The notes: generated from the letters alone by a model not told the origin. A stretch of 36,284 bases of DNA from Patescibacteria group bacterium (GCA_041660565.1 JBAZWC010000001.1:136197-172480), one strand, 5' to 3'; shown: positions 196 to 26,298, counted from the first letter of the stretch. A program made the numbers and translations.

Positions 196-1329
196 ATGTT
201 TTCAAAACTGAAATCGGTAGATTTACTATTATTTTTATTTCCGATAATGCTTTGGATTATCGGGTGTGTGGTGCTGTGGTCGCTTACTTTTGCTAGCACC
301 GATATTGGTACTCACAATTTAGCCATTAAACAAGTTGAATTTGGAGTTATTGGCATAATATCGATGATAATTTTGTCATTGGTAGATTACCGGTCGCTTC
401 GGTCTAATGTGATAATAATTTGTGTAGTCACAGTTGCTTTGCTGATTGCGGTGGAATTAGTTGGGAAGACTAGTCTGGGTGCTACCAGATGGCTAGATCT
501 TAAATTTTTTCAACTGCAACCGTCTGAATTAGCCAAAATGGCTTTAATTATCACATTATCCGCCTTTTTATCTCCAAGATTAGACAATCCAAATTTTAAA
601 ACTTTATTTGCTGCATTGTTTATTTTGATCGTGCCACTTGGCCTTGTGATCACTCAGCCAGATTTGGGCACGGCGATGATATTGGTAGCAATCTTTTTAG
701 GCCTAATATTTATGCTTAAATTGCGCCGTGCCCACTACGCGGTGATATTGATATCAATTTTATTGGTCCTGACCGCTTCGGTGCTAGCGTTTTATCGCGT
801 TGCTCCATTTTCAAATTTACTTCATGATTATCAACGTAATCGAGTAGAAACGTTTCTTAACCCCGAAAGTGATCCGCTAGGGAAGGGATACAACGTGCGA
901 CAGGCGGTTATTGCAATCGGAAATGGCGGATTGTGGGGCAAAGGCCTTGGCCAAGAGGTTGGCCACCTTTCCCAATTAAACTTTTTGCCAAAGGCCTACA
1001 CAGATTTTATTTTTGCTGCTACTGCAGAATCGGTTGGTTTTGTTGGTGCGGCGTTGGTGCTGTTTGTTTACGCCGGGATCTTTTGGCGAATAATTATTGC
1101 TGCGGTTACCGCAAAAGACAACTTTGCCAACTTAATTTGCTTTGGTTTCTCACTAATGTTGTTATTTTCGGTGTTGGTTAACGTGGGGATGAATTTAGGG
1201 ATAATGCCAGTAACCGGAATTCCACTGCCGTTTATTAGCGCCGGCGGCACGGCGTTAATAGTAAACTTTATGCTGCTGGGAATAATCCAGAGTATTATTA
1301 TCCGCCGAAAAGCCATTAAATTTGACTAA
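196..1329 (+). CDS. SEDS-family peptidoglycan polymerase (FtsW/RodA/SpoVE family)
   Basis: 377 aa polytopic membrane protein with family-typical motifs: QPSELAKM, ITQPDLGTA, NFLPKAYTDFIFAATAESVGFVGA, GIPLPFISAGGTA. I cannot separate RodA from FtsW by eye. Confidence 0.9.
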   Translation: MFSKLKSVDLLLFLFPIMLWIIGCVVLWSLTFASTDIGTHNLAIKQVEFGVIGIISMIILSLVDYRSLRSNVIIICVVTVALLIAVELVGKTSLGATRWLDLKFFQLQPSELAKMALIITLSAFLSPRLDNPNFKTLFAALFILIVPLGLVITQPDLGTAMILVAIFLGLIFMLKLRRAHYAVILISILLVLTASVLAFYRVAPFSNLLHDYQRNRVETFLNPESDPLGKGYNVRQAVIAIGNGGLWGKGLGQEVGHLSQLNFLPKAYTDFIFAATAESVGFVGAALVLFVYAGIFWRIIIAAVTAKDNFANLICFGFSLMLLFSVLVNVGMNLGIMPVTGIPLPFISAGGTALIVNFMLLGIIQSIIIRRKAIKFD

Positions 1330-9064: not shown

Positions 9065-9672
9065 TGAAAAATCTTTTACCCAAATCAATTGACGAGCTAG
9101 TTGACCAGCTATCGCGGCTGCCCGGCATCGGCCCGAAATCGGCCAGCCGGCTAGCGTTTGCGTTGATGCAACGGTCAAATGAATCTGTGGAGCATCTGGC
9201 TCAAGCAATTTTAATGATCAAAAAAGATTTGCGCTACTGTTCAAAATGCTATCTAATTACAGACAAGCCGGATTTATGTGTGGTTTGTCAAAACGATAAT
9301 CGGGATCAATCGATTATCTGTGTGGTTGAAGAATCGCTAGACGTGGTGGCAATCGAATCTAGCCACGGATTTAACGGAACGTATCATGTTTTAGGCGGGG
9401 TGATATCACCAATAGACGGTGTGGGGCCGGAGCAGCTGACTATCGCAGCGCTAGCAGCACGAATTGGCAGTTCTCCACAGGTTAAAGAAATCATCATCGC
9501 CACCAATCCCACGCTTGAAGGAGAGGCGACATCAATGTATTTGTGTGAACAATTAAAACCATTTAAGATAAAAATAAGCCGAATTGCGCGCGGCTTGCCA
9601 AGTGGCGGAGATTTGGAATATGCTGATGAAGTAACACTTTTAAGAGCGTTAGAAGGTAGACAGGTAGTATAA
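9064..9672 (+). CDS. recR: recombination protein RecR
   Basis: 202 aa. HhH motif LSRLPGIGPKSASRLAF, C4 zinc finger CSKC...CVVC, and a Toprim segment. Confidence 0.95.
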   Translation: MKNLLPKSIDELVDQLSRLPGIGPKSASRLAFALMQRSNESVEHLAQAILMIKKDLRYCSKCYLITDKPDLCVVCQNDNRDQSIICVVEESLDVVAIESSHGFNGTYHVLGGVISPIDGVGPEQLTIAALAARIGSSPQVKEIIIATNPTLEGEATSMYLCEQLKPFKIKISRIARGLPSGGDLEYADEVTLLRALEGRQVV

Positions 9673-11114: not shown

Positions 11115-12092
11115 GTGATTAAAAAACCATTCGCCAAATCAAATTTGCCGTTAATCGGTTTGTCGCCGATGGCGGGTTACACCGATTCTGCGTATCGTAC
11201 TATCTGCCGCGAACTAGGGGCAGATTTTGTGGTAACGGAACTTATTTCGGCTGATGGGGTAATTCAAAACTACGCTAGCCTTGGTCGTGTGTCAAAAACG
11301 CTCCGACTGATGCGGTTTTCCGCCAAAGAGCGCCCAATATTTATTCAACTTTTTGGTGCAGATCCGGAAAAGATGAAATTAGCGGCTCAGATCATCGCTA
11401 AAGAGCTAAAACCAGACGGAATCGACATCAATATGGGGTGTCCGGCGCACAAAGTAGTGTGCAGTGGTCATGGTTCGGCGTTAATGAAAAATCCTGCTTT
11501 AGCCGCAGAAATCGTCAAAAGTGTCAAAGAGGGGAGCGGACTGCCGGTTAGTGTCAAAACGCGGCTTGGGTGGTCTGATTCATCTAACTTAAATCAGTTT
11601 GTGGTTAGCTTAGCCAACGCGGGGGCCGATATGATTGCCATTCATGGGCGTACCTATGAGCAAGGTTTTAGTGGCAAAGCAGATTATGAGCCAATTTATG
11701 AGGCCAAGAAATTGGTCAGTATTCCCGTTTTGGGCAATGGTGATATCTGGTCAGCCGGGGACGCACTAGACAAAATCGGTAATTTAGATGGGCTGCTAAT
11801 TGGTAGGGGAGCGGTGGGGAATCCATGGATTTTTGCAGAGGTAAAAGAGGCGTTAACCACGAAACAGGTGGTTAATCACCCAATAAACTGGCAAAAAAGA
11901 TTCGAACTACTAAAAACGCATGTAGAGCTAAAGTATCAGCAAGATGGAAAAATTGGCATTGTTGAAATGCGAAAAATTCTACCAGCTTACCTCAAAGGAT
12001 TACCTAATGCGGCAAAATATCGTCAAAACATCAATTCGATCAATACCGTAGAAGATGTTAAAAAACTAATATCAGAGATACTGGGCTCTTGA
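11115..12092 (+). CDS. tRNA-dihydrouridine synthase (Dus family)
   Basis: 325 aa, GTG start. LSPMAGYTDSAYR, IDINMGCP, KTRLGW, IHGRT. Confidence 0.9.
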   Translation: MIKKPFAKSNLPLIGLSPMAGYTDSAYRTICRELGADFVVTELISADGVIQNYASLGRVSKTLRLMRFSAKERPIFIQLFGADPEKMKLAAQIIAKELKPDGIDINMGCPAHKVVCSGHGSALMKNPALAAEIVKSVKEGSGLPVSVKTRLGWSDSSNLNQFVVSLANAGADMIAIHGRTYEQGFSGKADYEPIYEAKKLVSIPVLGNGDIWSAGDALDKIGNLDGLLIGRGAVGNPWIFAEVKEALTTKQVVNHPINWQKRFELLKTHVELKYQQDGKIGIVEMRKILPAYLKGLPNAAKYRQNINSINTVEDVKKLISEILGS

Positions 12093-12355
12093 CAAGTTGT
12101 TTCCGATGTGCTAAATTGGCGATTGTAACTTTACAACTTGACACCGAACCCCAAGTAATGTTAATTACGAGGTAGAAATCTGGCTGGAATTGAGGAGCCA
12201 ATGATATCGTCGTCAAAAGATGTTTAAGCAATATTGTACGCCCTTTAAACAAATGAGCGTCTGCTGTATCCATCTGACGGTATTATTCCTTTTTTCTGGC
12301 TGGATTTGTGCCTCGTTTTTGGTATGTTGTTAACGCAACGCGACGAGTGTTGTAG

Positions 12356-12377
12356 GGGCGGACTCATATGTCCGCCC
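12356..12377. repeat. GC-rich palindromic unit
   Basis: gggcggac-tcatat-gtccgccc is a perfect 8-bp stem in an otherwise AT-rich spacer, 10 nt upstream of the promoter-like site for the first GC-rich cassette. Confidence 0.6.
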
Positions 12378-12386
12378 GTCCAGCGA

Positions 12387-12415
12387 TTGACAAACAAAGA
12401 AATATATGATACAGT
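12387..12415 (+). promoter_or_regulatory. sigma-70-like promoter candidate for GC-rich cassette 1
   Basis: TTGACA (12387-12392), 17-nt spacer, TACAGT (12410-12415) preceded by TGa (extended -10). This implies a ~160-nt leader. Confidence 0.4.
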
Positions 12416-12576
12416 AAATGGTTGTTAATGGTTAATTGTTAAAAGTTGACTGTTATCCAGTACCTTAATTAACTTACTTGGGATTCTGGCAGGAGAATAA
12501 GGCCGCACTTTGTGGTCTTTAATCCTGTCAGAAAAACTCGCCCCAACGCGGGGCAAATACCTTGGAGGATACTTCG

Positions 12577-13671
12577 ATGAAGGGTAAGTGGCTGGTGTTC
12601 GCCGTGGTGGCGTTGTTTGCCACCACTTCGTCGTTCGCTCAACTGTCGGTTGGGGGCGTCATAACCTCCACCGACAAGTCGCACAACATGAGTGTCATGT
12701 CCTCGCTGGTGGTTTCGGCCACCAACCCGGGGACAGATGAGGTGCTTGGGACCGTGAATAACGGTACCCCGATCGCCACGTCTTTCGTCGATTTACGCTT
12801 CACCCTGGTGCTCGACAACGTTGAGCTGCGGGGTAGCGTCGACCAGCTTGTCGACGCGATGATCTTCCCTGACGTGATGTCAAAGGATCACTCGCCGATG
12901 GTCCGGACCACAACCCCGTCGTATTCCCAGTTTCAATGGGAGCGGGACAAGACCCAACCGCGAATCTTCCGGTTGACCGTACCGGCTGGCTCATTGCCAG
13001 ACCGAAACGGCTACACCATGAAGTTCAGGGTGTGGGCGGCACAGTCGTCTGTCACGAAGGCCATGGGCGCACGGCTCTGGGGAAATCGCTCGGGTGAGTT
13101 TCTTGAGGCGTCGTTCCACTTCATGATCAAGCGCACGTGTGCGCCGAAGTCTGAATGGGAGATGGCTACTCAGCTGCAGGGGTTCAACCTGCTAATCGAG
13201 CAGCCGTCAGAGGCTTCGGCACCGGCTCGTGATCGGAAGTACGACGAGAAGCATCAGGAGAGGGCAGACCGATCGGACGTCCGTGAGGATGACCGAGAAG
13301 TCGCGCCGGCTCCGGCGACGAAGCCTGTGGTCAAGCAACAGACGGTTAGGGCGTCGATCAGGGTGGTTGACCCCAAGACTGGACAGACGATCGATTACCG
13401 CGGTCGGTTCGCGGTCACCACGACCAGTATCGAGCCGATCGATTGCAAGGAAGGGCCGGGATTTCAGGTTGACGAGACTGCCCCCAAGGGGGTGTGGACC
13501 GGCCACCTGTCACACGGCGTCGCGACGGCCGAGTTTCCCTCAGACCCAGCCAAGGTATGGTTGGTGGCGTGGGTGGAGTCGGCATCTGGTTGGTCGTTGT
13601 CTCGGGCAATTCGTTTGTCGCCCGAGAATGAGAATCCGGAGCTTCGGTTCCGCCTCGGAGGGTCGAAATGA
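12577..13671 (+). CDS. secreted hypothetical protein (GC-rich cassette 1, gene A)
   Basis: ATG at 12577 with GGAGGA 7 nt upstream; the ORF-track TTG at 12562 is probably an extension. Signal peptide MKGKWLVFAVVALFATTSSFA-Q. G/C-dominated third codon positions. No family recognised. Confidence 0.65.
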   Translation: MKGKWLVFAVVALFATTSSFAQLSVGGVITSTDKSHNMSVMSSLVVSATNPGTDEVLGTVNNGTPIATSFVDLRFTLVLDNVELRGSVDQLVDAMIFPDVMSKDHSPMVRTTTPSYSQFQWERDKTQPRIFRLTVPAGSLPDRNGYTMKFRVWAAQSSVTKAMGARLWGNRSGEFLEASFHFMIKRTCAPKSEWEMATQLQGFNLLIEQPSEASAPARDRKYDEKHQERADRSDVREDDREVAPAPATKPVVKQQTVRASIRVVDPKTGQTIDYRGRFAVTTTSIEPIDCKEGPGFQVDETAPKGVWTGHLSHGVATAEFPSDPAKVWLVAWVESASGWSLSRAIRLSPENENPELRFRLGGSK

Positions 13672-14513
13672 AGTTCCTGTGGATTGCCGCTATCCTGCTC
13701 TGCGCCGACATGGCGACAGCGCAGGCGACGTATGATCGCGGTGTGGTCCGGTCGCACCCGGCCCGATCGGCTGGGCTGTCGCCGGACGGGCAGTCGATGA
13801 CGAATTTCGCCAAGGAAGGCATATTCGGCATCATGCTGCGCGACTTCTTCGGTTTCAATGACAAGGATGTCAGCGAAGCCAAGGTCAAAGCCGCAGCGGG
13901 CAATTTCACGCTGTGGCAGCTAGCTCCTGGTAGTCGGTTCGACGACATGTGTGGGGGAACCCCCATCAAGTCGGTCGGACCGGGACGCACGGCGTTCTGG
14001 TTAGAGTACTATCGTCTCGAGGTTAGTTCGGGCAAGGTTGCCCGATTCGTGACGATCTGCGCTAACGGGATCAAGCTGTCCAAGGAAGGCACTCAGATCA
14101 AGCCGCACGCCGTAGTGGTTACTCGGGACGTCCCGCGCGACGTCATTCGAGACGTTCCCGGTGAGAACGTTTACGTGTTCCAGTACGAGGAACGAGTCGT
14201 CGAGGTGCCCGGCCCAGAACGGGTTGAGTACATCGACAGGCCGATTCTCGTTCCGGTGGCACCTCTGTACGGCGAGGGGCCGCGGACGGTAGGGTCGCAC
14301 GTGGTGCAGACCTATCCCGTGGCGTTTGTCGGCTACACGTTCCGATCATCTGATCGGGCGAAATGCCGGCCACAGCCGAGGCCACGGCCAAGGCCAACCC
14401 CGCCGGGCTGTACGCCCGGAGTAATTCCACCCGGGCCACCAATACGGATTGGCCCACCCAACCCCCAAGACCCGAACCAGGGCTTGGGACCGGCTCCTCC
14501 GATACGGAGGTAG
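13668..14513 (+). CDS. secreted hypothetical protein with Pro-rich C-terminus (GC-rich cassette 1, gene B)
   Basis: The ATGA start/stop overlap with gene A indicates translational coupling. Signal peptide MKFLWIAAILLCADMATAQA. C-terminal RPQPRPRPRPTPPGCTPGVIPPGPPIRIGPPNPQDP. Confidence 0.6.
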   Translation: MKFLWIAAILLCADMATAQATYDRGVVRSHPARSAGLSPDGQSMTNFAKEGIFGIMLRDFFGFNDKDVSEAKVKAAAGNFTLWQLAPGSRFDDMCGGTPIKSVGPGRTAFWLEYYRLEVSSGKVARFVTICANGIKLSKEGTQIKPHAVVVTRDVPRDVIRDVPGENVYVFQYEERVVEVPGPERVEYIDRPILVPVAPLYGEGPRTVGSHVVQTYPVAFVGYTFRSSDRAKCRPQPRPRPRPTPPGCTPGVIPPGPPIRIGPPNPQDPNQGLGPAPPIRR

Positions 14514-14522
14514 CGCACACCT

Positions 14523-14550
14523 GTGGGGCGACGGTTCGCCGCCGCCCCAC
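14523..14550 (+). terminator. GC-rich hairpin directly after cassette 1 (no T-run)
   Basis: gtggggcg..gg-ttcg-cc..cgccccac gives 8+2 bp, 10 nt after the stop. The lack of a U-tract makes intrinsic termination uncertain. Confidence 0.4.
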
Positions 14551-14560
14551 ACCAACTAAC

Positions 14561-14590
14561 TTGACAACTTATGATATGTTGTGATATAAT
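14561..14590 (+). promoter_or_regulatory. sigma-70-like promoter candidate for the DUF11 surface-protein operon
   Basis: TTGACA (14561-14566), 18-nt spacer, TGaTATAAT (14582-14590). Confidence 0.5.
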
Positions 14591-14618
14591 TACACAATTC
14601 ACACAAGTTGTGAAGAAA

Positions 14619-14635
14619 GTATGATATAATCATAC
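14619..14635. promoter_or_regulatory. perfect palindrome overlapping a second extended -10 (operator candidate)
   Basis: gtatgat-ata-atcatac has perfect 7-bp arms and contains TGaTATAAT (14622-14630), 60 nt upstream of the surface-protein ATG. Confidence 0.35.
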
Positions 14636-14694
14636 TATCTCGCATTCAACTATCACAGTTGAAGCGAGGACAACTAGAAAAGAAAAGGAAAGAT

Positions 14695-16635
14695 ATGATG
14701 AATATCATTCAAAAATCCAAAAAATATATCGGATTAGCCGCTATTGCTTTGACAGTAGTTGGTTCATCTTTGGTGTCTCCATTAACTCACGCCGGAAATC
14801 CGGTGTTTAACCAAATGCAAGGGGACAAAGAACAGCTAGTTGGTCGTACTCAGGACCAATCAGCTTACTCTAACCCGGTCACCGCTACTACTCAAGATAG
14901 AGTAACAGTAGCTATTTATATTCATAATAGTGGTGGCTCAACCGCCGCTAACACTGTGGTTAAGTTATCCGAAATTAATGCCGGAAACACTCAATCACAT
15001 CAATTAGTATCGTCTATTAGTGCCGATGGGGTTGATCCTGTAACTGCGACGATCGTAAATGGACAGGTGGTTGGTCATTCAAATTTGACTATCAACTTAG
15101 ATAAATCCGCTACCATGACCTATGTTAACGGTTCTACCGCTTGGTATCCAAACTTTGGTTCGAATCCTAACGAGCCCGGTATCGTAATGCCAGATGGTAT
15201 TATGAGCGCAAATGGCATTAACCTGGGTTCAGTTGAATCTTGTTGGGATCATGTTGGGTACGTGTTGGCTGATTTTGTCTTCACCTCTACTCCAACTGTG
15301 GCCAATTTACAGACCGAAAAATGGGTTGCGGTTTATGGTGGTAATAATCAGTGGGTGAAGGAAAATACCGCTTTAGTTGGCGATCAATTACGTTATCAGA
15401 TTTATTACAATAACAACGGTGGCGTGGTTGCTACTAATGCTACCATTACCGATCGTTTGCCAGATGGTGTTTCTTATCAAGCTAACTCTGTTACAAAACG
15501 AGTTAAAGATGTAAATAACAACGATGTTGATATTGACATCCCCGATAGTCAGCTAACCATTTCTGGCCAAAATATTACCATTCCGGTAGGCAACGTGTTG
15601 CCTGGCCAAGGTAATTCCGGTTATGTTTATTTGCGAGTCAAAGTGAATAACTTGTCTGTTGGTACGCATACCTTAACTAATAACGCCGACTTGGTGGCTA
15701 CTAACGCTGCGATGGTTTCGGCCAGTGCCTTAACCAAGGTAACGGTGTCCGAAACTCCGGTTTCAGACGTGCGTATTCTAAAAGAAGTGGTAAACACCTC
15801 TGTTTCCGGTTCACGATGGGTAAAAGAAAACACCGCCAAACCCGGTGATCATTTGCAGTATCGTTTGACCGTGTACAATCAAGGTAACGCTGGTGCAGAC
15901 AACGTGGTGGTTAAAGATGTTTTGCCACAGCATATTTCTTATGTTGCGGGTTCAACAAAAATTTATAATGTAACTGATCCTAATAACGGTACCACGTTAG
16001 CCGATGGTATTGTGGGCAACGGTATCAACATTGGTACGGTTAACAGTGGCGTGCCTAACGGCAACAAATATATTGTTTTTGACGCTATTGTGTCAACCAA
16101 TATCACAGCCGGTAATCACGATTTAATCAACACTGCTTCAGTATGGTTAAATAGTATGAAAAAGTATGAAGATACTGCCAAAACAACCGTTACTGCCGAA
16201 ACCGGATTACTGTTGACTAAAGAAGTTTGGAGCGCTAACACCGGTCAGTGGGTTGGTCGTCTTGAAAACGTCCGCCCGGGAGACTATGTGTTGTATCGTA
16301 TTCAAGTACGCAATACCGGTTCAACCACGGTAAACAACCCGGTAATTAAAGATATTTTACCGGCCAATGTTGACTATATTTCCGGATCAACGTTAATGGA
16401 CGGCTCTGCCGTTGTGGACGATGCTTGGATTACCGCGGGTACCGGCATTCATATTGCCAACGTGACCGCTGGTAACTTTAAAACCATCACTCTAAAAGTG
16501 AAGGTGCAAAGTTGTCCTCCTGGTGGAACTTACACTCTAACTAACACTGCCACGGTCATTGCCGATGGGTTAGACTTAAAAACCGCTACCGCTGACATAG
16601 TTGTAACTGCTGGTCCTCCAGCACTACCACGGTAA
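14695..16635 (+). CDS. secreted surface protein with DUF11-type (conserved repeat domain) repeats, no sorting signal
   Basis: ATG at 14695 gives signal peptide MMNIIQKSKKYIGLAAIALTVVGSSLVSPLTHA. There are three repeats of the pattern W.KENTA.(P/V)GD.L.Y.I...N.G...A.N..(I/V).D.LP..(V/I)SY..GS. The N-terminal ~190 aa is paralogous to the next gene. Confidence 0.8.
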   Translation: MMNIIQKSKKYIGLAAIALTVVGSSLVSPLTHAGNPVFNQMQGDKEQLVGRTQDQSAYSNPVTATTQDRVTVAIYIHNSGGSTAANTVVKLSEINAGNTQSHQLVSSISADGVDPVTATIVNGQVVGHSNLTINLDKSATMTYVNGSTAWYPNFGSNPNEPGIVMPDGIMSANGINLGSVESCWDHVGYVLADFVFTSTPTVANLQTEKWVAVYGGNNQWVKENTALVGDQLRYQIYYNNNGGVVATNATITDRLPDGVSYQANSVTKRVKDVNNNDVDIDIPDSQLTISGQNITIPVGNVLPGQGNSGYVYLRVKVNNLSVGTHTLTNNADLVATNAAMVSASALTKVTVSETPVSDVRILKEVVNTSVSGSRWVKENTAKPGDHLQYRLTVYNQGNAGADNVVVKDVLPQHISYVAGSTKIYNVTDPNNGTTLADGIVGNGINIGTVNSGVPNGNKYIVFDAIVSTNITAGNHDLINTASVWLNSMKKYEDTAKTTVTAETGLLLTKEVWSANTGQWVGRLENVRPGDYVLYRIQVRNTGSTTVNNPVIKDILPANVDYISGSTLMDGSAVVDDAWITAGTGIHIANVTAGNFKTITLKVKVQSCPPGGTYTLTNTATVIADGLDLKTATADIVVTAGPPALPR

Positions 16636-16643
16636 GGAATTAT

Positions 16644-18188
16644 ATGAAAATGAATAAAATGTTAACTAAAATTTTTTCTGCTTTAGTGTTATCGGTGATT
16701 AGTGTAAGCTTAGTAGCCCAAGCCGGTACCCCGGATCCGCTGTTTAATATGAAACAGGGTGATGTTGAGCTGTTAAGCGCCCGAAATATTACTCAAGGTC
16801 AGACTGCGACATCAGATCCAATTAGTGCCGCTTCTACTGATGTGGTTGAAGGTGTGGTTTACTATCACAACGGCGTTCAGGATTCCATGGCCAAAAACGT
16901 GGTGATTAAAGTGGGTGTTGATACTACTTCTGCTAGTCAGAAACATTATCTAACTGCGTCAATTTCGGCGGATAATGCTCCAACCGTTACCGATACGGTA
17001 GTTGGTGGCGTGATTGTGGGTAAAACCGGATTGACTATCAATCTTGATAGCGCGTCTCAAATCTCAATTATTCCTGGTTCAGTACGTTGGTTCAGCGAAG
17101 GTGGACAAACTCCAACTACGCTAATTAACGGTCAAAATGGTTCCGAGCTTTTCTCTGCTACCGGTTTGAAACTGGGTGATATCCAAGGTTGCTGGGCTCA
17201 TGCCGGATACATAATGTTCCAAATGAAATTTGTTAAGTCAAATATTGTGTTGTCAAAGTCCGCTTTCAACAACACTCAAAACGTTGATGCTACCAAAGTA
17301 ACCGCCAAAGCAGGTGATAGCATTACTTATTCTTTGACTACCAAAAATATTGGTACCGCAGATAAGACAAATTACATCGTAAAAGATGGTATCAAAGACG
17401 TGCTAGATTATGCGACAGTGACTTCGGTTTCTGACAACGGCGTAATTAAAGATCAGTCAGCAGAAATTGATCGCAATAATCAAACCATTGTGGAATATCC
17501 GACAGTCAACATTGCTGCGGGTCAAACAATTGTCCGCACATTCACTGTCAGCGTCAAAAATCCGCTACCTACAAATCCAGCAGTCGGCTACGCTTACGAT
17601 AACGTAATGTTTAACCATTATGGTAACGACGTGGTTATCGTGGTCGGACAACCGGTGTTGAATATGTCTATTACCAAAGGTGTACGCAACATCGCTAAAA
17701 ACGAATCCAGCTTTACACCGCTTAACGCCGCCACCCCCGGAGATGGCTTGGAATATTTGATTACGGTGAAGAACACTGGTAACACTCCAACCGCCTCGGT
17801 CCTAAAAGATGTTTTGCCTAACGGTGTTGATTTTGTGGCCGGATCTGTGGTGGTGATGACCAACAATGCTGTCATTACACCAACCGGTGATTTGCTTGGG
17901 TCAGGATTAAACTTGCCTGCGCTTAAGCCAAATCAAGAGTTAACGGTTACGTTCCGCGTTGTTACATCAGCTAATTTAGCCGATGCCACCAACTTGCATA
18001 ACGTCGCAACGGTGATTTTTAACAACAGTCAGTTGCAAGCGCACGCAGATACAGTAATTGTACGCATTCCGGTAGTGCCGACCACTCCGGCAACTACTTT
18101 GCCAACCACCGGCGCTGGCGTAGTTTTGCCGATCGCCACGTTTGTTGGGATGATTGGACTAATTGCGAGATTCAAAATCCGCATCTGA
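16644..18188 (+). CDS. LPXTG-anchored cell-wall surface protein with DUF11-type repeats
   Basis: 514 aa. Signal peptide; the shared N-terminal domain (GTPDPLFNMKQGD..., ISADNAP, GCWAHAGY). C-terminal LPTTG plus a hydrophobic stretch and RFKIRI tail is a sortase sorting signal. Confidence 0.85.
   Translation: MKMNKMLTKIFSALVLSVISVSLVAQAGTPDPLFNMKQGDVELLSARNITQGQTATSDPISAASTDVVEGVVYYHNGVQDSMAKNVVIKVGVDTTSASQKHYLTASISADNAPTVTDTVVGGVIVGKTGLTINLDSASQISIIPGSVRWFSEGGQTPTTLINGQNGSELFSATGLKLGDIQGCWAHAGYIMFQMKFVKSNIVLSKSAFNNTQNVDATKVTAKAGDSITYSLTTKNIGTADKTNYIVKDGIKDVLDYATVTSVSDNGVIKDQSAEIDRNNQTIVEYPTVNIAAGQTIVRTFTVSVKNPLPTNPAVGYAYDNVMFNHYGNDVVIVVGQPVLNMSITKGVRNIAKNESSFTPLNAATPGDGLEYLITVKNTGNTPTASVLKDVLPNGVDFVAGSVVVMTNNAVITPTGDLLGSGLNLPALKPNQELTVTFRVVTSANLADATNLHNVATVIFNNSQLQAHADTVIVRIPVVPTTPATTLPTTGAGVVLPIATFVGMIGLIARFKIRI
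18099..18113 (+). other. LPXTG sortase recognition motif (LPTTG)
   Basis: ttg cca acc acc ggc, followed by AGVVLPIATFVGMIGLIA and then RFKIRI-stop. Confidence 0.85.
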
Positions 18189-21838: not shown

Positions 21839-21842
21839 TCAT

Positions 21843-21871
21843 CTGTCATTCCCGCGAAGGCGGGAATCCAG
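21843..21871 (+). repeat. TGTCAT-headed palindromic unit
   Basis: ctgtcattcccgcgaaggcgggaatccag, with stem attcccgc / gcgggaat, 5 nt after the rplA stop. Confidence 0.7.
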
Positions 21872-21896
21872 TCTATGAAAAACTAACTCCTATTTC

Positions 21897-22009
21897 GTAG
21901 CCCAGACTTCTTGACCTGCCGTAGCTCGAAGAGCGAAGGAGGTTAGTCTGCTCATTGGTACGCTACCTCCTACGCTAAAGCTTCGGAAGGTCAGGGAAGC
22001 GTGGGCTAC
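21897..22009. repeat. long imperfect hairpin (~45-nt arms)
   Basis: gtagcccagacttcttgacctgccgtagctcgaagagcgaaggaggt is roughly complementary to acctcctacgctaaagcttcggaaggtcagggaagcgtgggctac. Confidence 0.6.
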
Positions 22010-22073
22010 GGACGTTCTTTAATACGAGAATCACAACCGATGTTAGGTGTGTCCACAAAGGAGGGACACAGAA

Positions 22074-22703
22074 ATGGCCTCGCAAACAGCAAGCCCATCA
22101 TGCTACGTGAATCCGCATGAATGGGAAGAGCGCGAAGTGACGGAATGTACCCGCCTATTCAGGTTAACCAACATTCCGGAGTGGGATGGGCTACGAGACC
22201 GCATAAGCAGGTGTCCGGTTTGGGGGACTACTTGCATTGCAGTCCCGCTGTGCATGACACGTCCACAGCTGCTTGAAATGCTGATGATGCTGGGTGTCAA
22301 GATCGCGGGAAATGACCCAGTGGCGGCAGATTGCGAGGGGGAGGATTACCCCCTTCGAGTCGGCACATTCGGGGTCGATCTGCCATGGTTTTTTGCCCGC
22401 CGCGAGTTGGGCGAGCACCCATTTGGTTTTCCACTTGACAGTATGGGTGCCCTTTACCGGTCTATGGGTGCTTACGGTATCGCGCCGGTCGAGTTGGCGC
22501 TCTGGGCAATCGCGCGACACGTCGCTTCTGGCGGTGCATTGCCAACACTACCAACATGGATCGCCGGCCTCAATGTTGTGGGAGGCGGATCGATATTGGC
22601 GCTTGACATGGCCAACGGTCCGTTGAGGATTACCGCCGTTGCACACAACATCCAAGCGTCGAACATTGCCGGCCTGCCATGGTATTTCGCGCCGGCACGG
22701 TGA
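22074..22703 (+). CDS. hypothetical protein, no signal peptide (GC-rich cassette 2)
   Basis: ATG at 22074 with AAGGAGGG at 22058-22065. 209 aa and GC-rich (37/60 G+C hand-counted at 22441-22500). No motif recognised. Several overlapping ORFs in other frames are expected for GC-rich DNA. Confidence 0.55.
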   Translation: MASQTASPSCYVNPHEWEEREVTECTRLFRLTNIPEWDGLRDRISRCPVWGTTCIAVPLCMTRPQLLEMLMMLGVKIAGNDPVAADCEGEDYPLRVGTFGVDLPWFFARRELGEHPFGFPLDSMGALYRSMGAYGIAPVELALWAIARHVASGGALPTLPTWIAGLNVVGGGSILALDMANGPLRITAVAHNIQASNIAGLPWYFAPAR

Positions 22704-22780
22704 GCCAACATCGCGATTCGCACTGGGCGCTTGGGTCAACACGACCCCGGCGCCCGTTTATTTCTCCTCACCTCTCCGAG

Positions 22781-22912
22781 CCGTAGGTCTACGAGCCGGT
22801 GGCCGGCCTACGGCCACCCTCTCCTCTTGGAGGAGAGGGGACAATAGGAATTCCTTCTCCTCTGGAGGAGAAGGTGGAACGCTAAGCGTCCCGTAACCCC
22901 GCTTAGCGGGGT
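22781..22912. repeat. cluster of five short GC-rich palindromic units
   Basis: The units are: ccgtagg...cctacgg (22781-22813); ccctctcctc-ttg-gaggagaggg (22817-22839); ccttctcctc-tg-gaggagaagg (22853-22874); ggaacgctaagcgtccc (22876-22892); ccccgcttagcgggg (22896-22910). The last two are an inverted copy of 1455-1492. Confidence 0.75.
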
Positions 22913-22947
22913 GCCTGTAAGGCGGATGAGGAGGGAATCAAAAATCA

Positions 22948-22976
22948 TTGACAATTACAATCAAATAAGATAAGAT
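22948..22976 (+). promoter_or_regulatory. sigma-70-like promoter candidate for rplJL
   Basis: TTGACA (22948-22953), 17-nt spacer, TAAGAT (22971-22976). Confidence 0.4.
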
Positions 22977-25543: not shown

Positions 25544-25572
25544 TTGACAAAACGTCTCAGGTATGCTATTAT
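25544..25572 (+). promoter_or_regulatory. sigma-70-like promoter candidate for GC-rich cassette 3
   Basis: TTGACA (25544-25549), 17-nt spacer, TATTAT (25567-25572). Confidence 0.5.
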
Positions 25573-25619
25573 TGTATGTTAAGCTCAATTATTAGTGAGT
25601 TAGCAGTACATTAAAAATT

Positions 25620-25680
25620 GTTAGTGCAACTAAAGCGATTAACAACCTTGGTTGGTTGTTAGTCTCTTAGTCGCACTAAC
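25620..25680 (+). promoter_or_regulatory. long hairpin in the 5' leader of the collagen-like gene
   Basis: Outer stem gttagtgc (25620-25627) / gcactaac (25673-25680) is perfect. Inner arm attaacaacc / ggttgttagt matches 9/10. Confidence 0.5.
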
Positions 25681-25719
25681 GCACATACTCTGAAATTCTC
25701 TGGGAGGAGAAATACGGCC

Positions 25720-26298
25720 ATGAAGTGGCTCACAATGTTGTTCGTCATGGCGGCCGTTGTAATGGCCGCAACAATTCCTGCGTTCGCGCAGGATGATGAT
25801 CGGATCGACGGGCAGCCAAAGGCAGATCAGGTGGGGCAGACGTCCCAGCTGGTCGCGCCACCGGACCAGTCCACCCAGTCGACCGAAACCCTGAAAGGGG
25901 ACAAGGGCGACACCGGCGAGAAGGGCGATCCTGGCGCAACCGGCCCGGCCGGTCAGCCAGGTCATGAGGGCAAGATGGGACCAGCTGGTCCCACTGGTCA
26001 CCCTGGACGTCAGGGTCGTACCGGCCCTCGTGGTCGTGATGGTAAGAACGGCCACGACGGTCGCAATGGCCGGGATGCGGTCGTCAACTACGACGCAATC
26101 GTGGGTCATGTGATGGAGCTTTTGGAGAAGAAGTGGGAAAATCCCAACAACCTCCCCAAGCCGTTGAAGGATGACCACACACTGCTCCAAGTCGTCGGCA
26201 CCACCGCGATTGCGGCCCTGTACTGGAACTGGATCATCGGGATCGCGATGATCATATTCGTTGTAGTCTTTGTTGTTCATATTAAGCGCGGCTGGTAG
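25720..26298 (+). CDS. collagen-like triple-helix-repeat protein with signal peptide and C-terminal TM anchor (GC-rich cassette 3)
   Basis: GGGAGGAG Shine-Dalgarno. Signal peptide MKWLTMLFVMAAVVMAATIPAFA-Q. 20 uninterrupted G-X-Y triplets. C-terminal hydrophobic WNWIIGIAMIIFVVVFVV followed by HIKRGW. Confidence 0.75.
   Translation: MKWLTMLFVMAAVVMAATIPAFAQDDDRIDGQPKADQVGQTSQLVAPPDQSTQSTETLKGDKGDTGEKGDPGATGPAGQPGHEGKMGPAGPTGHPGRQGRTGPRGRDGKNGHDGRNGRDAVVNYDAIVGHVMELLEKKWENPNNLPKPLKDDHTLLQVVGTTAIAALYWNWIIGIAMIIFVVVFVVHIKRGW
25897..26076 (+). repeat. (G-X-Y)20 collagen-like coding repeat
   Basis: GDK GDT GEK GDP GAT GPA GQP GHE GKM GPA GPT GHP GRQ GRT GPR GRD GKN GHD GRN GRD, aa 60-119. Confidence 0.9.

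Follow-up and report, generated by a model that had tools for sequence, protein, structure and literature searches.

In a 36,284-nucleotide (nt) stretch of DNA from a Patescibacteria group bacterium (GCA_041660565.1, JBAZWC010000001.1:136197-172480; hereafter the window, in whose positions all coordinates are given unless a related locus is named), two overlapping genes, here called A and B, form a GC-rich unit on the plus strand, directly upstream of an operon for CLIPPER/DUF11 surface proteins (the name CLIPPER is taken from PMC12617251). The unit is an ancient and maintained compositional island, its transcript is rich in hairpins that are not themselves conserved, and the protein family is small and rare. 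On our best reading of the sequence comparisons, A and B appear to be a conserved, vertically inherited, lineage-specific pair of an environmental clade of Saccharibacteria. The analysis followed up a prediction made from the sequence alone, in which the pair had been described as a cassette of two secreted orphan proteins beside a native surface-protein operon.

Ten related loci were compared, the window and nine others (denoted by L-numbers), with each contig covering part of the gene order. A phmmer search with concatenated A and B over 1.84 billion representatives returned only eight other proteins, of which five resemble A and three resemble B. A word-indexed protein search with A, B and an A+B profile returned only the queries themselves; it missed all eight members found by phmmer, even when the profile contained them, so that a result of this kind does not make a protein an orphan. 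A scan of species-representative genomes based on Dus yielded three Saccharibacteria-type metagenome-assembled genomes (MAGs), one of them labelled Berkelbacteria, in which Dus is 58-60% identical to that of the window and A-like and B-like genes lie downstream of dus and upstream of CLIPPER/DUF11 genes. A DNA pattern derived from a conserved non-coding RNA (ncRNA) at the locus added two more loci, one of them on a 1.04-Mb contig. With eight phmmer homologues and syntenic homologues in nine other loci, the term orphan had to be given up.

The composite gene order is MIP, dus, ncRNA, A, B, CLIPPER-1, CLIPPER-2, prfB, M50B. The segment dus-ncRNA-A-B was found wherever the available sequence allows (L002/L016, L003, L004, L018/19, L022 and L024), and A-B-CLIPPER-1-CLIPPER-2-prfB was found in L002/L016, L004, L020 and L023, and as far as CLIPPER-1, at the contig end, in L003. 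The original prediction had proposed co-occurrence of the two homologues in other genomes as a check, and the pair was found at the same place in all nine other loci. It had also linked the unit to the adjacent surface-protein operon; this link is strengthened by the constant adjacency of the two. In each of the five other loci that reach that far (L002/L016, L003, L004, L020 and L023), the CLIPPER/DUF11 operon directly follows A-B; the remaining contigs stop short of it.

Across the related loci, amino acid identity to the window was 58-61% for Dus, 64-68% for TopA, 67-69% for PrfB and 55-57% for CLIPPER-1, compared to 27-37% for A and 32-45% for B, which in some loci was undetectable by this measure. 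A and B thus diverge much faster than the neighboring CLIPPER proteins, and outside the two closest pairs of loci their homology is seen at the protein level without nucleotide similarity. The genome of the window is about equally far from all recovered relatives. The types of A and the types of B co-vary between loci. Two pairs of loci are identical (L018 = L019, and the window = L001), leaving no within-population variation to read, and a Logan contig from SRR18595301 matches the window without a difference across both A-B junctions. The contrast drawn earlier between a cassette and a native operon does not stand: the pair is no less native than its neighbors, and sits at this position in genomes that share only 58-69% identity with the window in Dus, TopA and PrfB. 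Wherever the context was visible, no A-B homologue lay outside this locus, and none was found in phage or plasmid collections. The window contains no tRNA, A-B has no convincing flanking direct repeats, and the unit holds only A and B and no mobility gene (no whole-window search for integrase genes was made).

A and B are real genes under selection. Codon periodicity, on which the coding interpretation depended, is clear in both: the GC content at the first, second and third codon positions (GC1, GC2 and GC3) is 0.57, 0.48 and 0.74 in A and 0.64, 0.50 and 0.71 in B, with GC3 > GC1 > GC2 in each, the pattern typical of coding sequence on which GC pressure acts. In the closest pair of loci, L004 and L022, the non-synonymous substitution rate divided by the synonymous one (dN/dS) is ≈0.27 for A and ≈0.24 for B, with dS of 1.6-1.8, and the non-synonymous rate of both genes is about three times that of Dus. 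Long shadow open reading frames (ORFs) run in other frames of A-B.

All features named in the original prediction were present when the sequence was read again (Table 1). The two genes are translationally coupled as proposed, with an ATGA overlap of start and stop and a separate Shine-Dalgarno (SD) sequence, GGAGGG, for B; overlap or abutment of A and B was also seen in L002, L017, L022, L018 and L003. The unit's own promoter, long structured leader and closing hairpin were likewise borne out, by a promoter scan, the z score of the fold and the inverted arms, respectively. TTGACA-type sites were read directly upstream of A in L002, L004 and L024 as well, at comparable distances; the start of the transcript is placed from the promoter motif only. 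A strong GC hairpin follows the stop codon of B by 10-40 nt in all eight loci with sequence there, in four of them with a U-tract, which the hairpin of the window does not have. A-B is organized as an autonomous operon for two predicted secreted proteins, beside a sortase-type surface operon.

Export of A and B by the Sec pathway is predicted from their N-termini, which were judged by a heuristic scan of 19 sequences and not by SignalP. All 19 have a hydrophobic core of 10 residues with a mean Kyte-Doolittle hydropathy of 2.0-3.6, and nearly all have an x-A/G cleavage site followed by Q. An n-region with one or two K/R residues is present in 18; the exception is B of L020, whose called start is apparently truncated. 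In the window, the predicted sites are SFA before Q in A (21/22) and ATA before Q in B, and Q is mostly found at +1 among the homologues. The A-x-A-type signal peptides first proposed for both proteins therefore agree with the Sec signals of the scan, which are kept in the homologues.

The most conspicuous property of the unit is its composition. In the window, A-B has a GC content of 60-62%, compared to 43-45% in the neighboring genes, a step of +16 points with sharp edges: the profile runs at 30-45% before ≈12540, at 55-72% through both genes and at 30% after 14550. GC3 is 0.71-0.74 in A-B and 0.32-0.48 (about 0.42) in the neighbors, and exceeds 0.6 in only four of the 30 genes of the window. 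For the eight loci with complete or nearly complete copies of A and B, the GC content of the pair is 0.53-0.65 vs. 0.40-0.49 in the rest of the locus, a difference of 9-23 points, and GC3 is 0.53-0.81 vs. 0.27-0.51 in the flanking genes (for example, 0.59-0.65 vs. 0.27-0.29 in L004). GC1 and GC2 are raised too. The leaders, at 0.35-0.51, are not GC-rich, and the shift is limited to the translated sequence and the 3' hairpin.

Even between the closest loci (L004/L022), dS is at least 1.6 in both A and B, while dS of Dus is saturated and could not be computed. Since the synonymous sites have fully turned over and GC3 is still high, the GC anomaly has been maintained in each lineage and is not un-ameliorated foreign DNA. 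The high GC of A-B is an equilibrium kept at this locus, not a relic of transfer. An explanation by amino acid cost, as for gene transfer agents (GTAs), was considered and rejected because GC3 carries the main shift. Restriction-site and k-mer oddities amounted only to a mild excess of CGATCG.

The second property of the unit is excess mRNA structure. The mean folding energy of 120-nt windows was compared to that of synonymous-codon shuffles in which the protein, the codon counts and GC3 were kept. By this measure, 18 A and B genes from nine genomes showed an excess of 9-26% (median 18%, z from -2.4 to -8.9). The median was 2% for 24 housekeeping neighbors (Mann-Whitney p = 1e-7 vs. A/B) and likewise 2%, with a maximum of 5.8%, for 27 ORFs of matched GC content taken from GC-rich loci of unrelated MAGs (p = 1e-8), which were completely separated from A/B. 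Hairpins with short loops account for the excess: over 12 genes, 122 perfect 6-nt inverted repeats with loops of 3-12 nt were observed, vs. 53 expected, while longer-spaced inverted repeats showed no excess. Conserved RNA structure inside the coding region was also considered, and was rejected because the retention of base pairs between L004 and L022 fell below that of slid controls. The feature that is kept is foldedness in general and no particular fold; as specific pairs are not conserved, selection would have to act on generic foldedness.

Folding is strong upstream of the genes as well. The leader (12420-12600) folds at -65.3 kcal/mol, vs. -45.6 ± 4.1 kcal/mol in dinucleotide shuffles (z = -4.84, with none of 200 shuffles as good), and a repeat run gave z = -5.19. 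The homologous leaders reached z ≤ -3.9 in eight of the ten loci, and are dominated there by a single hairpin, long and almost perfectly paired, 40-70 nt upstream of the SD sequence. Alignment showed no conservation of leader sequence across the ten loci. The Rfam covariance search of the leader that had been suggested at the outset matched no family: nothing was found at the gathering threshold, the best sub-threshold hit being the serC leader (20 bits vs. 35 required). Searches of the window, the relatives and the ncRNA against Rfam were equally without a family match.

Three minor observations concern the leader and its surroundings. A YGGCAR motif opens the 5' arm, at the foot of the big leader hairpin, in about seven of the ten loci (the window, L004, L022, L017, L023, L024 and L020), for example as CUGGCAGG, CUGGCAAU and UUGGCAGA, and it resembles the CUGGCUGG motif that is present twice in the conserved ncRNA. 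It could be a shared protein-binding or processing site, or chance; its recurrence among the leaders is suggestive but weak. The hairpin at 12540-12554 (12536-12558) scores as an intrinsic terminator on the minus strand only, where a T-run follows it; no minus-strand genes run into it, and on the plus strand it is a plain stem before the SD sequence. A separate GC hairpin, ggggcggac/gtccgccc, lies at 12351-12382, between the ncRNA and the A-B promoter.

Neither A nor B had a significant match in Pfam, NCBIfam, PHROGs or PDB sequences. The family-library searches found no CLIPPER/DUF11 or other isopeptide domain in either, and no S-layer or SLH-type domain was found in Pfam, NCBIfam or PDB sequences (a match to B. 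anthracis Sap was non-significant, E 0.63); no known anchor was found in A or B. Protein A is predicted to consist of the signal peptide, a β-sandwich at ≈40-210, a disordered charged linker (214-254) and a second β-sandwich at ≈255-350. An AlphaFold2 model from a six-sequence alignment had a mean predicted local distance difference test (pLDDT) score of 62.6, with blocks up to 89, and the best PDB matches in Foldseek were tandem FN3/Ig-like pairs (E 2e-4, TM-score 0.18-0.31); viral structural matches were equally generic. A is modeled as two Ig/FN3-like β-sandwiches with a flexible linker, charged or coiled, between them.

Protein B has a signal peptide, a head at ≈35-135 with invariant C131 and N133, an extended stalk rich in V, P, E and R at ≈140-230, and the proline-rich tail noted in the original prediction, which is present in the translation; this tail contains a GPPNPQ motif, and its basic C-terminus ends in GPAPPIRR. 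In five of nine members of the B family, the stalk is a true G-X-Y tract matching Pfam Collagen (PF01391; best E 2e-9). B of the window has no Collagen match and no G-X-Y run, the V/P/E/R-rich segment standing in its place. B is best read from these sequences as a fiber-type protein in which an extended stalk connects a small globular head to the proline-rich tail.

The observed gene structure, conservation, secretion signals, maintained GC and excess folding could be brought together if A and B were a pair of secreted envelope proteins specific to this lineage and translated from a hairpin-armored, probably long-lived mRNA, an interpretation that we favor slightly. Translational coupling would give roughly 1:1 synthesis of A and B, which would probably form a complex. 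From their constant adjacency, A, B and the two CLIPPER(DUF11)/LPXTG-type proteins may build one surface structure, serving adhesion, host contact or as a coat. The high coding GC3 (0.2-0.4 above the genome), the 9-26% extra folding and the capping hairpins at both ends would amount to a structured, long-lived transcript, from which a cell with little transcription capacity could make much envelope protein. As to the cause of the composition, we propose more tentatively, as a possibility short of even likelihood, that the envelope genes A and B, and probably also the gene at 25720-26298 described below, are kept GC-rich and full of ever-shifting short hairpins in these ultra-small cells, where capacity for transcription and translation is scarce, through selection on generic mRNA foldedness, for longevity or nuclease resistance.

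Several points weigh against this interpretation. The promoter, the leader and the stability of the mRNA are all read from the sequence. The structural matches of A are weak and generic (E 2e-4, TM-score ≈0.2-0.3), the AlphaFold2 model of B is unreliable (pLDDT 40), and B has no recognizable wall anchor (no LPXTG, transmembrane segment or SLH domain). The ribosomal-protein and RNA polymerase genes of the window are not GC-rich, so that GC-richness is not the way in which this genome generally achieves high expression. Within the coding region, 28-32% of base pairs were retained between L004 and L022, vs. 34-39% in slid controls. The CLIPPER genes have an intermediate excess of folding (median 10%) but no GC enrichment, and the housekeeping gene dus is also enriched in short hairpins. 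Finally, a DNA-level process that makes short inverted repeats could give the same hairpin pattern.

Such a process is the strongest rival, albeit a weakened one: the composition and the hairpins would be a neutral by-product, at a fast-evolving surface-antigen locus, of GC-biased gene conversion arising from frequent allelic recombination, or of template-switch (quasi-palindrome) mutagenesis, which would generate short inverted repeats and hasten divergence as well. It would suit the rapid change of A and B, at about three times the non-synonymous rate of Dus and much faster than CLIPPER, as well as the raised GC1 and GC2, and templated mutation would make just such short-loop perfect inverted repeats at non-conserved positions. 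However, the GC enrichment ends at the start codon, and because the leaders are not GC-rich (0.35-0.51), conversion tracts anchored in the conserved flanks are hard to reconcile with the pattern. Moreover, the GC3 shift of 0.2-0.4 far exceeds the effects attributed to gene conversion in bacteria. We regard this explanation as unlikely, if worth keeping in view.

Selection might instead favor slow or paused translation, brought about by stable hairpins and by GC-ending codons that are rare in this genome, which would aid the co-translational Sec targeting, folding or assembly of fibrous secreted proteins, rather than mRNA longevity. The anomaly is limited to translated sequence, codon usage runs counter to what is seen in the ribosomal-protein and RNA polymerase genes, and three of the four GC-rich genes of the window have Sec signal peptides, all as this explanation would have it; but the neighboring secreted CLIPPER proteins are of ordinary composition, and the GC-richness is gene-wide and not concentrated at the signal peptide. 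We find it distinctly unlikely.

A third possibility is that A-B has been replaced repeatedly by genes from a GC-rich pool, mobile or viral and so far unsampled, with the ncRNA marking an integration hot spot beside it. Small RNA genes are frequent targets of integrative elements, and the ncRNA lies directly upstream in all loci, at a variable distance from A (240-660 nt of hairpin-rich filler); the window also holds a second, genome-specific GC-rich insertion at 22074-22703. Set against this, the unit has no integrase or repeat boundaries (with the limit on the integrase search given above), no homologue was found outside the locus where context was available or among phages and plasmids, the promoter and leader inside the putative insert are host-like and AT-rich, and the A and B types co-vary between loci, as vertical descent predicts. 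Replacement of this kind is improbable.

The original prediction implied a history in which a foreign cassette from a GC-rich donor was recently inserted upstream of the native surface operon. The sharp +16-point GC step, the atypical codon usage and the empty word-indexed search all spoke for it. None of these outweighs the presence of the pair in the same slot in nine other loci with housekeeping proteins 58-69% identical, the mere 27-45% identity of A and B across loci without nucleotide similarity, the high GC3 on both sides of the closest comparison despite dS of at least 1.6, the lack of a tRNA, flanking direct repeat, mobility gene or phage/plasmid homologue, and the restriction of homologues among 1.84 billion representatives to this locus where context was visible. 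The likelihood is very small, and recent transfer of A-B is effectively excluded. That the region is, or doubles as, a large structured non-coding RNA with incidental ORFs is the least credible of all, for although the predicted folding is very strong and the shadow ORFs are long, all ten loci keep the frames, the SD sites and the signal peptides, codon periodicity is clear, dN/dS is ≈0.25, parts of the A model are a confident β-sandwich, the base pairs of L004 are not preserved in L022 and Rfam gives no match; a purely non-coding role is excluded.

The envelope pair with a stable transcript that we favor has a partial parallel in the S-layer genes. The slpA-type S-layer mRNA of Lactobacillus has a half-life of 14-15 min, owed to a long structured 5' untranslated region (PMC3666127). 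Like A-B, S-layer genes form an autonomous unit for secreted envelope proteins, with a strong promoter, a long hairpin leader and a terminator hairpin. Unlike them, A-B encodes two coupled proteins rather than one, without sequence or domain similarity or an SLH anchor, and its coding region itself is GC-shifted and hairpin-enriched, a feature that, to our knowledge, has not been described for S-layer genes. The collagen-like surface proteins (Scl1/Scl2, Lcl; PF01391) share with the B family a signal peptide, globular head, stalk and tail, but B of the window has no G-X-Y run, LPXTG or transmembrane anchor, and its head domain has no known relatives. In the CLIPPER/DUF11 isopeptide adhesin and pilin operons, to one of which, with an LPTTG motif, A-B is constantly adjacent, the adhesin stalks are Ig-like, as A is predicted to be; A and B differ in having no isopeptide-domain match, a separate transcription unit and a different composition.

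With genomic islands, A-B shares the compositional break, atypical codons, proteins of unknown function and a self-contained layout from promoter to terminator; it differs in occupying the same locus in deeply diverged relatives, in having no mobility gene, tRNA or repeat, and in a GC content kept despite saturation. A further likeness is to the gene clusters related to the Rhodobacter capsulatus GTA (RcGTA) in Alphaproteobacteria, which are vertically inherited with a GC content persistently above that of the genome and not due to transfer. In those clusters, GC1 and GC2 carry the excess (cheap amino acids) and GC3 does not differ (PMC7360931), whereas the shift in A-B is largest in GC3 (≈+0.3) and is accompanied by excess RNA folding.

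A-B is therefore a clean counter-example to the rule that atypical GC means recent horizontal gene transfer (HGT), which matters for island and HGT callers and for genomes of the Candidate Phyla Radiation. If selection on mRNA is indeed the cause, compositional islands that HGT detectors flag as foreign would be endogenous adaptations of expression level, kept through full turnover of the synonymous sites. With much more local RNA structure than synonymous shuffles or GC-matched genes have, and with individual pairs that turn over, A-B makes selection on generic mRNA foldedness, so far argued mostly from engineered mRNAs, testable in a natural system. Together with the CLIPPER operon, A and B make up a conserved four-gene surface cluster of an uncultivated episymbiont lineage, and the four proteins are concrete candidates for host attachment.

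Table 1. Positions of the A-B unit, the adjacent CLIPPER/DUF11 operon and the conserved ncRNA. Positions are those of the window except where a related locus is named.
Feature	Position	Strand	Remarks
σ70-like promoter of A-B	12387-12415	+	TTGACA-17-TACAGT, 10/12 matches, extended -10 TG (promoter scan)
5' leader, ≈160 nt	12416-12576	+	three hairpins, ≈12426-12455, 12486-12531 and 12540-12554
Leader hairpin	12486-12531	+	ctggcagga 12486-12494 / tcctgtcag 12523-12531, enclosing ggccgcac/gtggtc
Leader hairpin	12540-12554	+	gcccc-aacgc-ggggc, just upstream of SD
SD of gene A	12564-12569	+	GGAGGA; ATG at 12577
Gene A, 364 residues	12577-13671	+	ORF and codon periodicity
SD of gene B	13657-13662	+	GGAGGG, within the end of gene A, five bases before the start of B
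Start/stop overlap of A and B	13668-13671	+	ATGA
Gene B, 281 residues	13668-14513	+	ORF and codon periodicity
Closing GC-rich 3' hairpin	14522-14551	+	arms 14522-14534 / 14539-14551, 13 bp, 92% complementary, loop TTCG
CLIPPER operon promoter	14561-14590	+	perfect consensus, TTGACA-18-TATAAT with TG; eleven bases past the A-B 3' hairpin
CLIPPER/DUF11 protein 1	14695-16635	+	part of partner operon 14561-18188
CLIPPER/DUF11 protein 2	16644-18188	+	LPTTG, transmembrane segment, basic tail
Promoter-like site before ncRNA	12089-12117		
Rod-shaped ncRNA, ≈155 nt	12152-12335	+	between dus and A-B promoter, ends in U-tract
ncRNA in L002	11572-11754		
ncRNA in L003	10640-10834		
ncRNA in L004	1418-1613		
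ncRNA in L022	9282-9450		
ncRNA in L018	753-914		
ncRNA in L020	163-319		
ncRNA in L017	351-509		
ncRNA in L023	≈9125-9285	-	
ncRNA in L024	≈738-897	-	

The CLIPPER operon begins with a region (14561-14640) that also contains a second promoter-like site and a direct repeat, TGATATAAT, at 14582-14598 and 14622-14638.

The locus also yielded a covariation-supported ncRNA that is absent from Rfam. It lies upstream of A in all ten loci, with a mean column identity of 70%, far above that of A and B. It has 51 base pairs (92.8% paired), of which 24 have compensatory changes, where shuffles gave 12.5 ± 2.1 and slid controls 3-5. No Rfam match was found even at E ≤ 10, and there was no obvious likeness to signal recognition particle RNA or 6S RNA. 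Depending on the locus, 240 to 660 nt of hairpin-rich filler separate the ncRNA from A. A role of the ncRNA as a regulator of the leader was considered and rejected: the energies of cognate duplexes were no better than those of shuffled or non-cognate pairs, and a 16-nt complementarity between 12291-12306 and 12521-12536 is for that reason not supported as conserved. The ncRNA is treated here as a syntenic neighbor of A-B.

Three further GC-rich genes were seen in the window or its relatives. The first, in the region 25544-26298 on the plus strand (ORF 25720-26298, GC3 0.68), has a layout like that of A-B, with a promoter-like TTGACA site (≈25544-25573), a hairpin leader of ≈150 nt, GGAGGAG and a signal peptide with the site AFA before Q. 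It encodes a protein with ≈20 collagen G-X-Y repeats and a C-terminal transmembrane anchor, and has 16% excess folding. The second is a 209-residue ORF (22074-22703 on the plus strand, in the region 21840-22950; 58% GC, 5% excess folding) without a signal peptide or a family match. It lies between the ribosomal L1 and L10 genes, flanked by GC-rich palindromic hairpins such as tcattcccgcgaaggcgggaatc and ggccaccctctcctcttggaggagaggggac; the same gap is only ≈400 nt in L016, and the ORF looks like a genome-specific insertion, unlike A-B. The third is a small gene of the GerE/LuxR helix-turn-helix type (63 residues; L002 11175-11366 = L016 9134-9325), which is present between dus and the ncRNA in L002/L016 only and is followed there by hairpin repeats, gggtcgcaccct / agggtgcgaccct.

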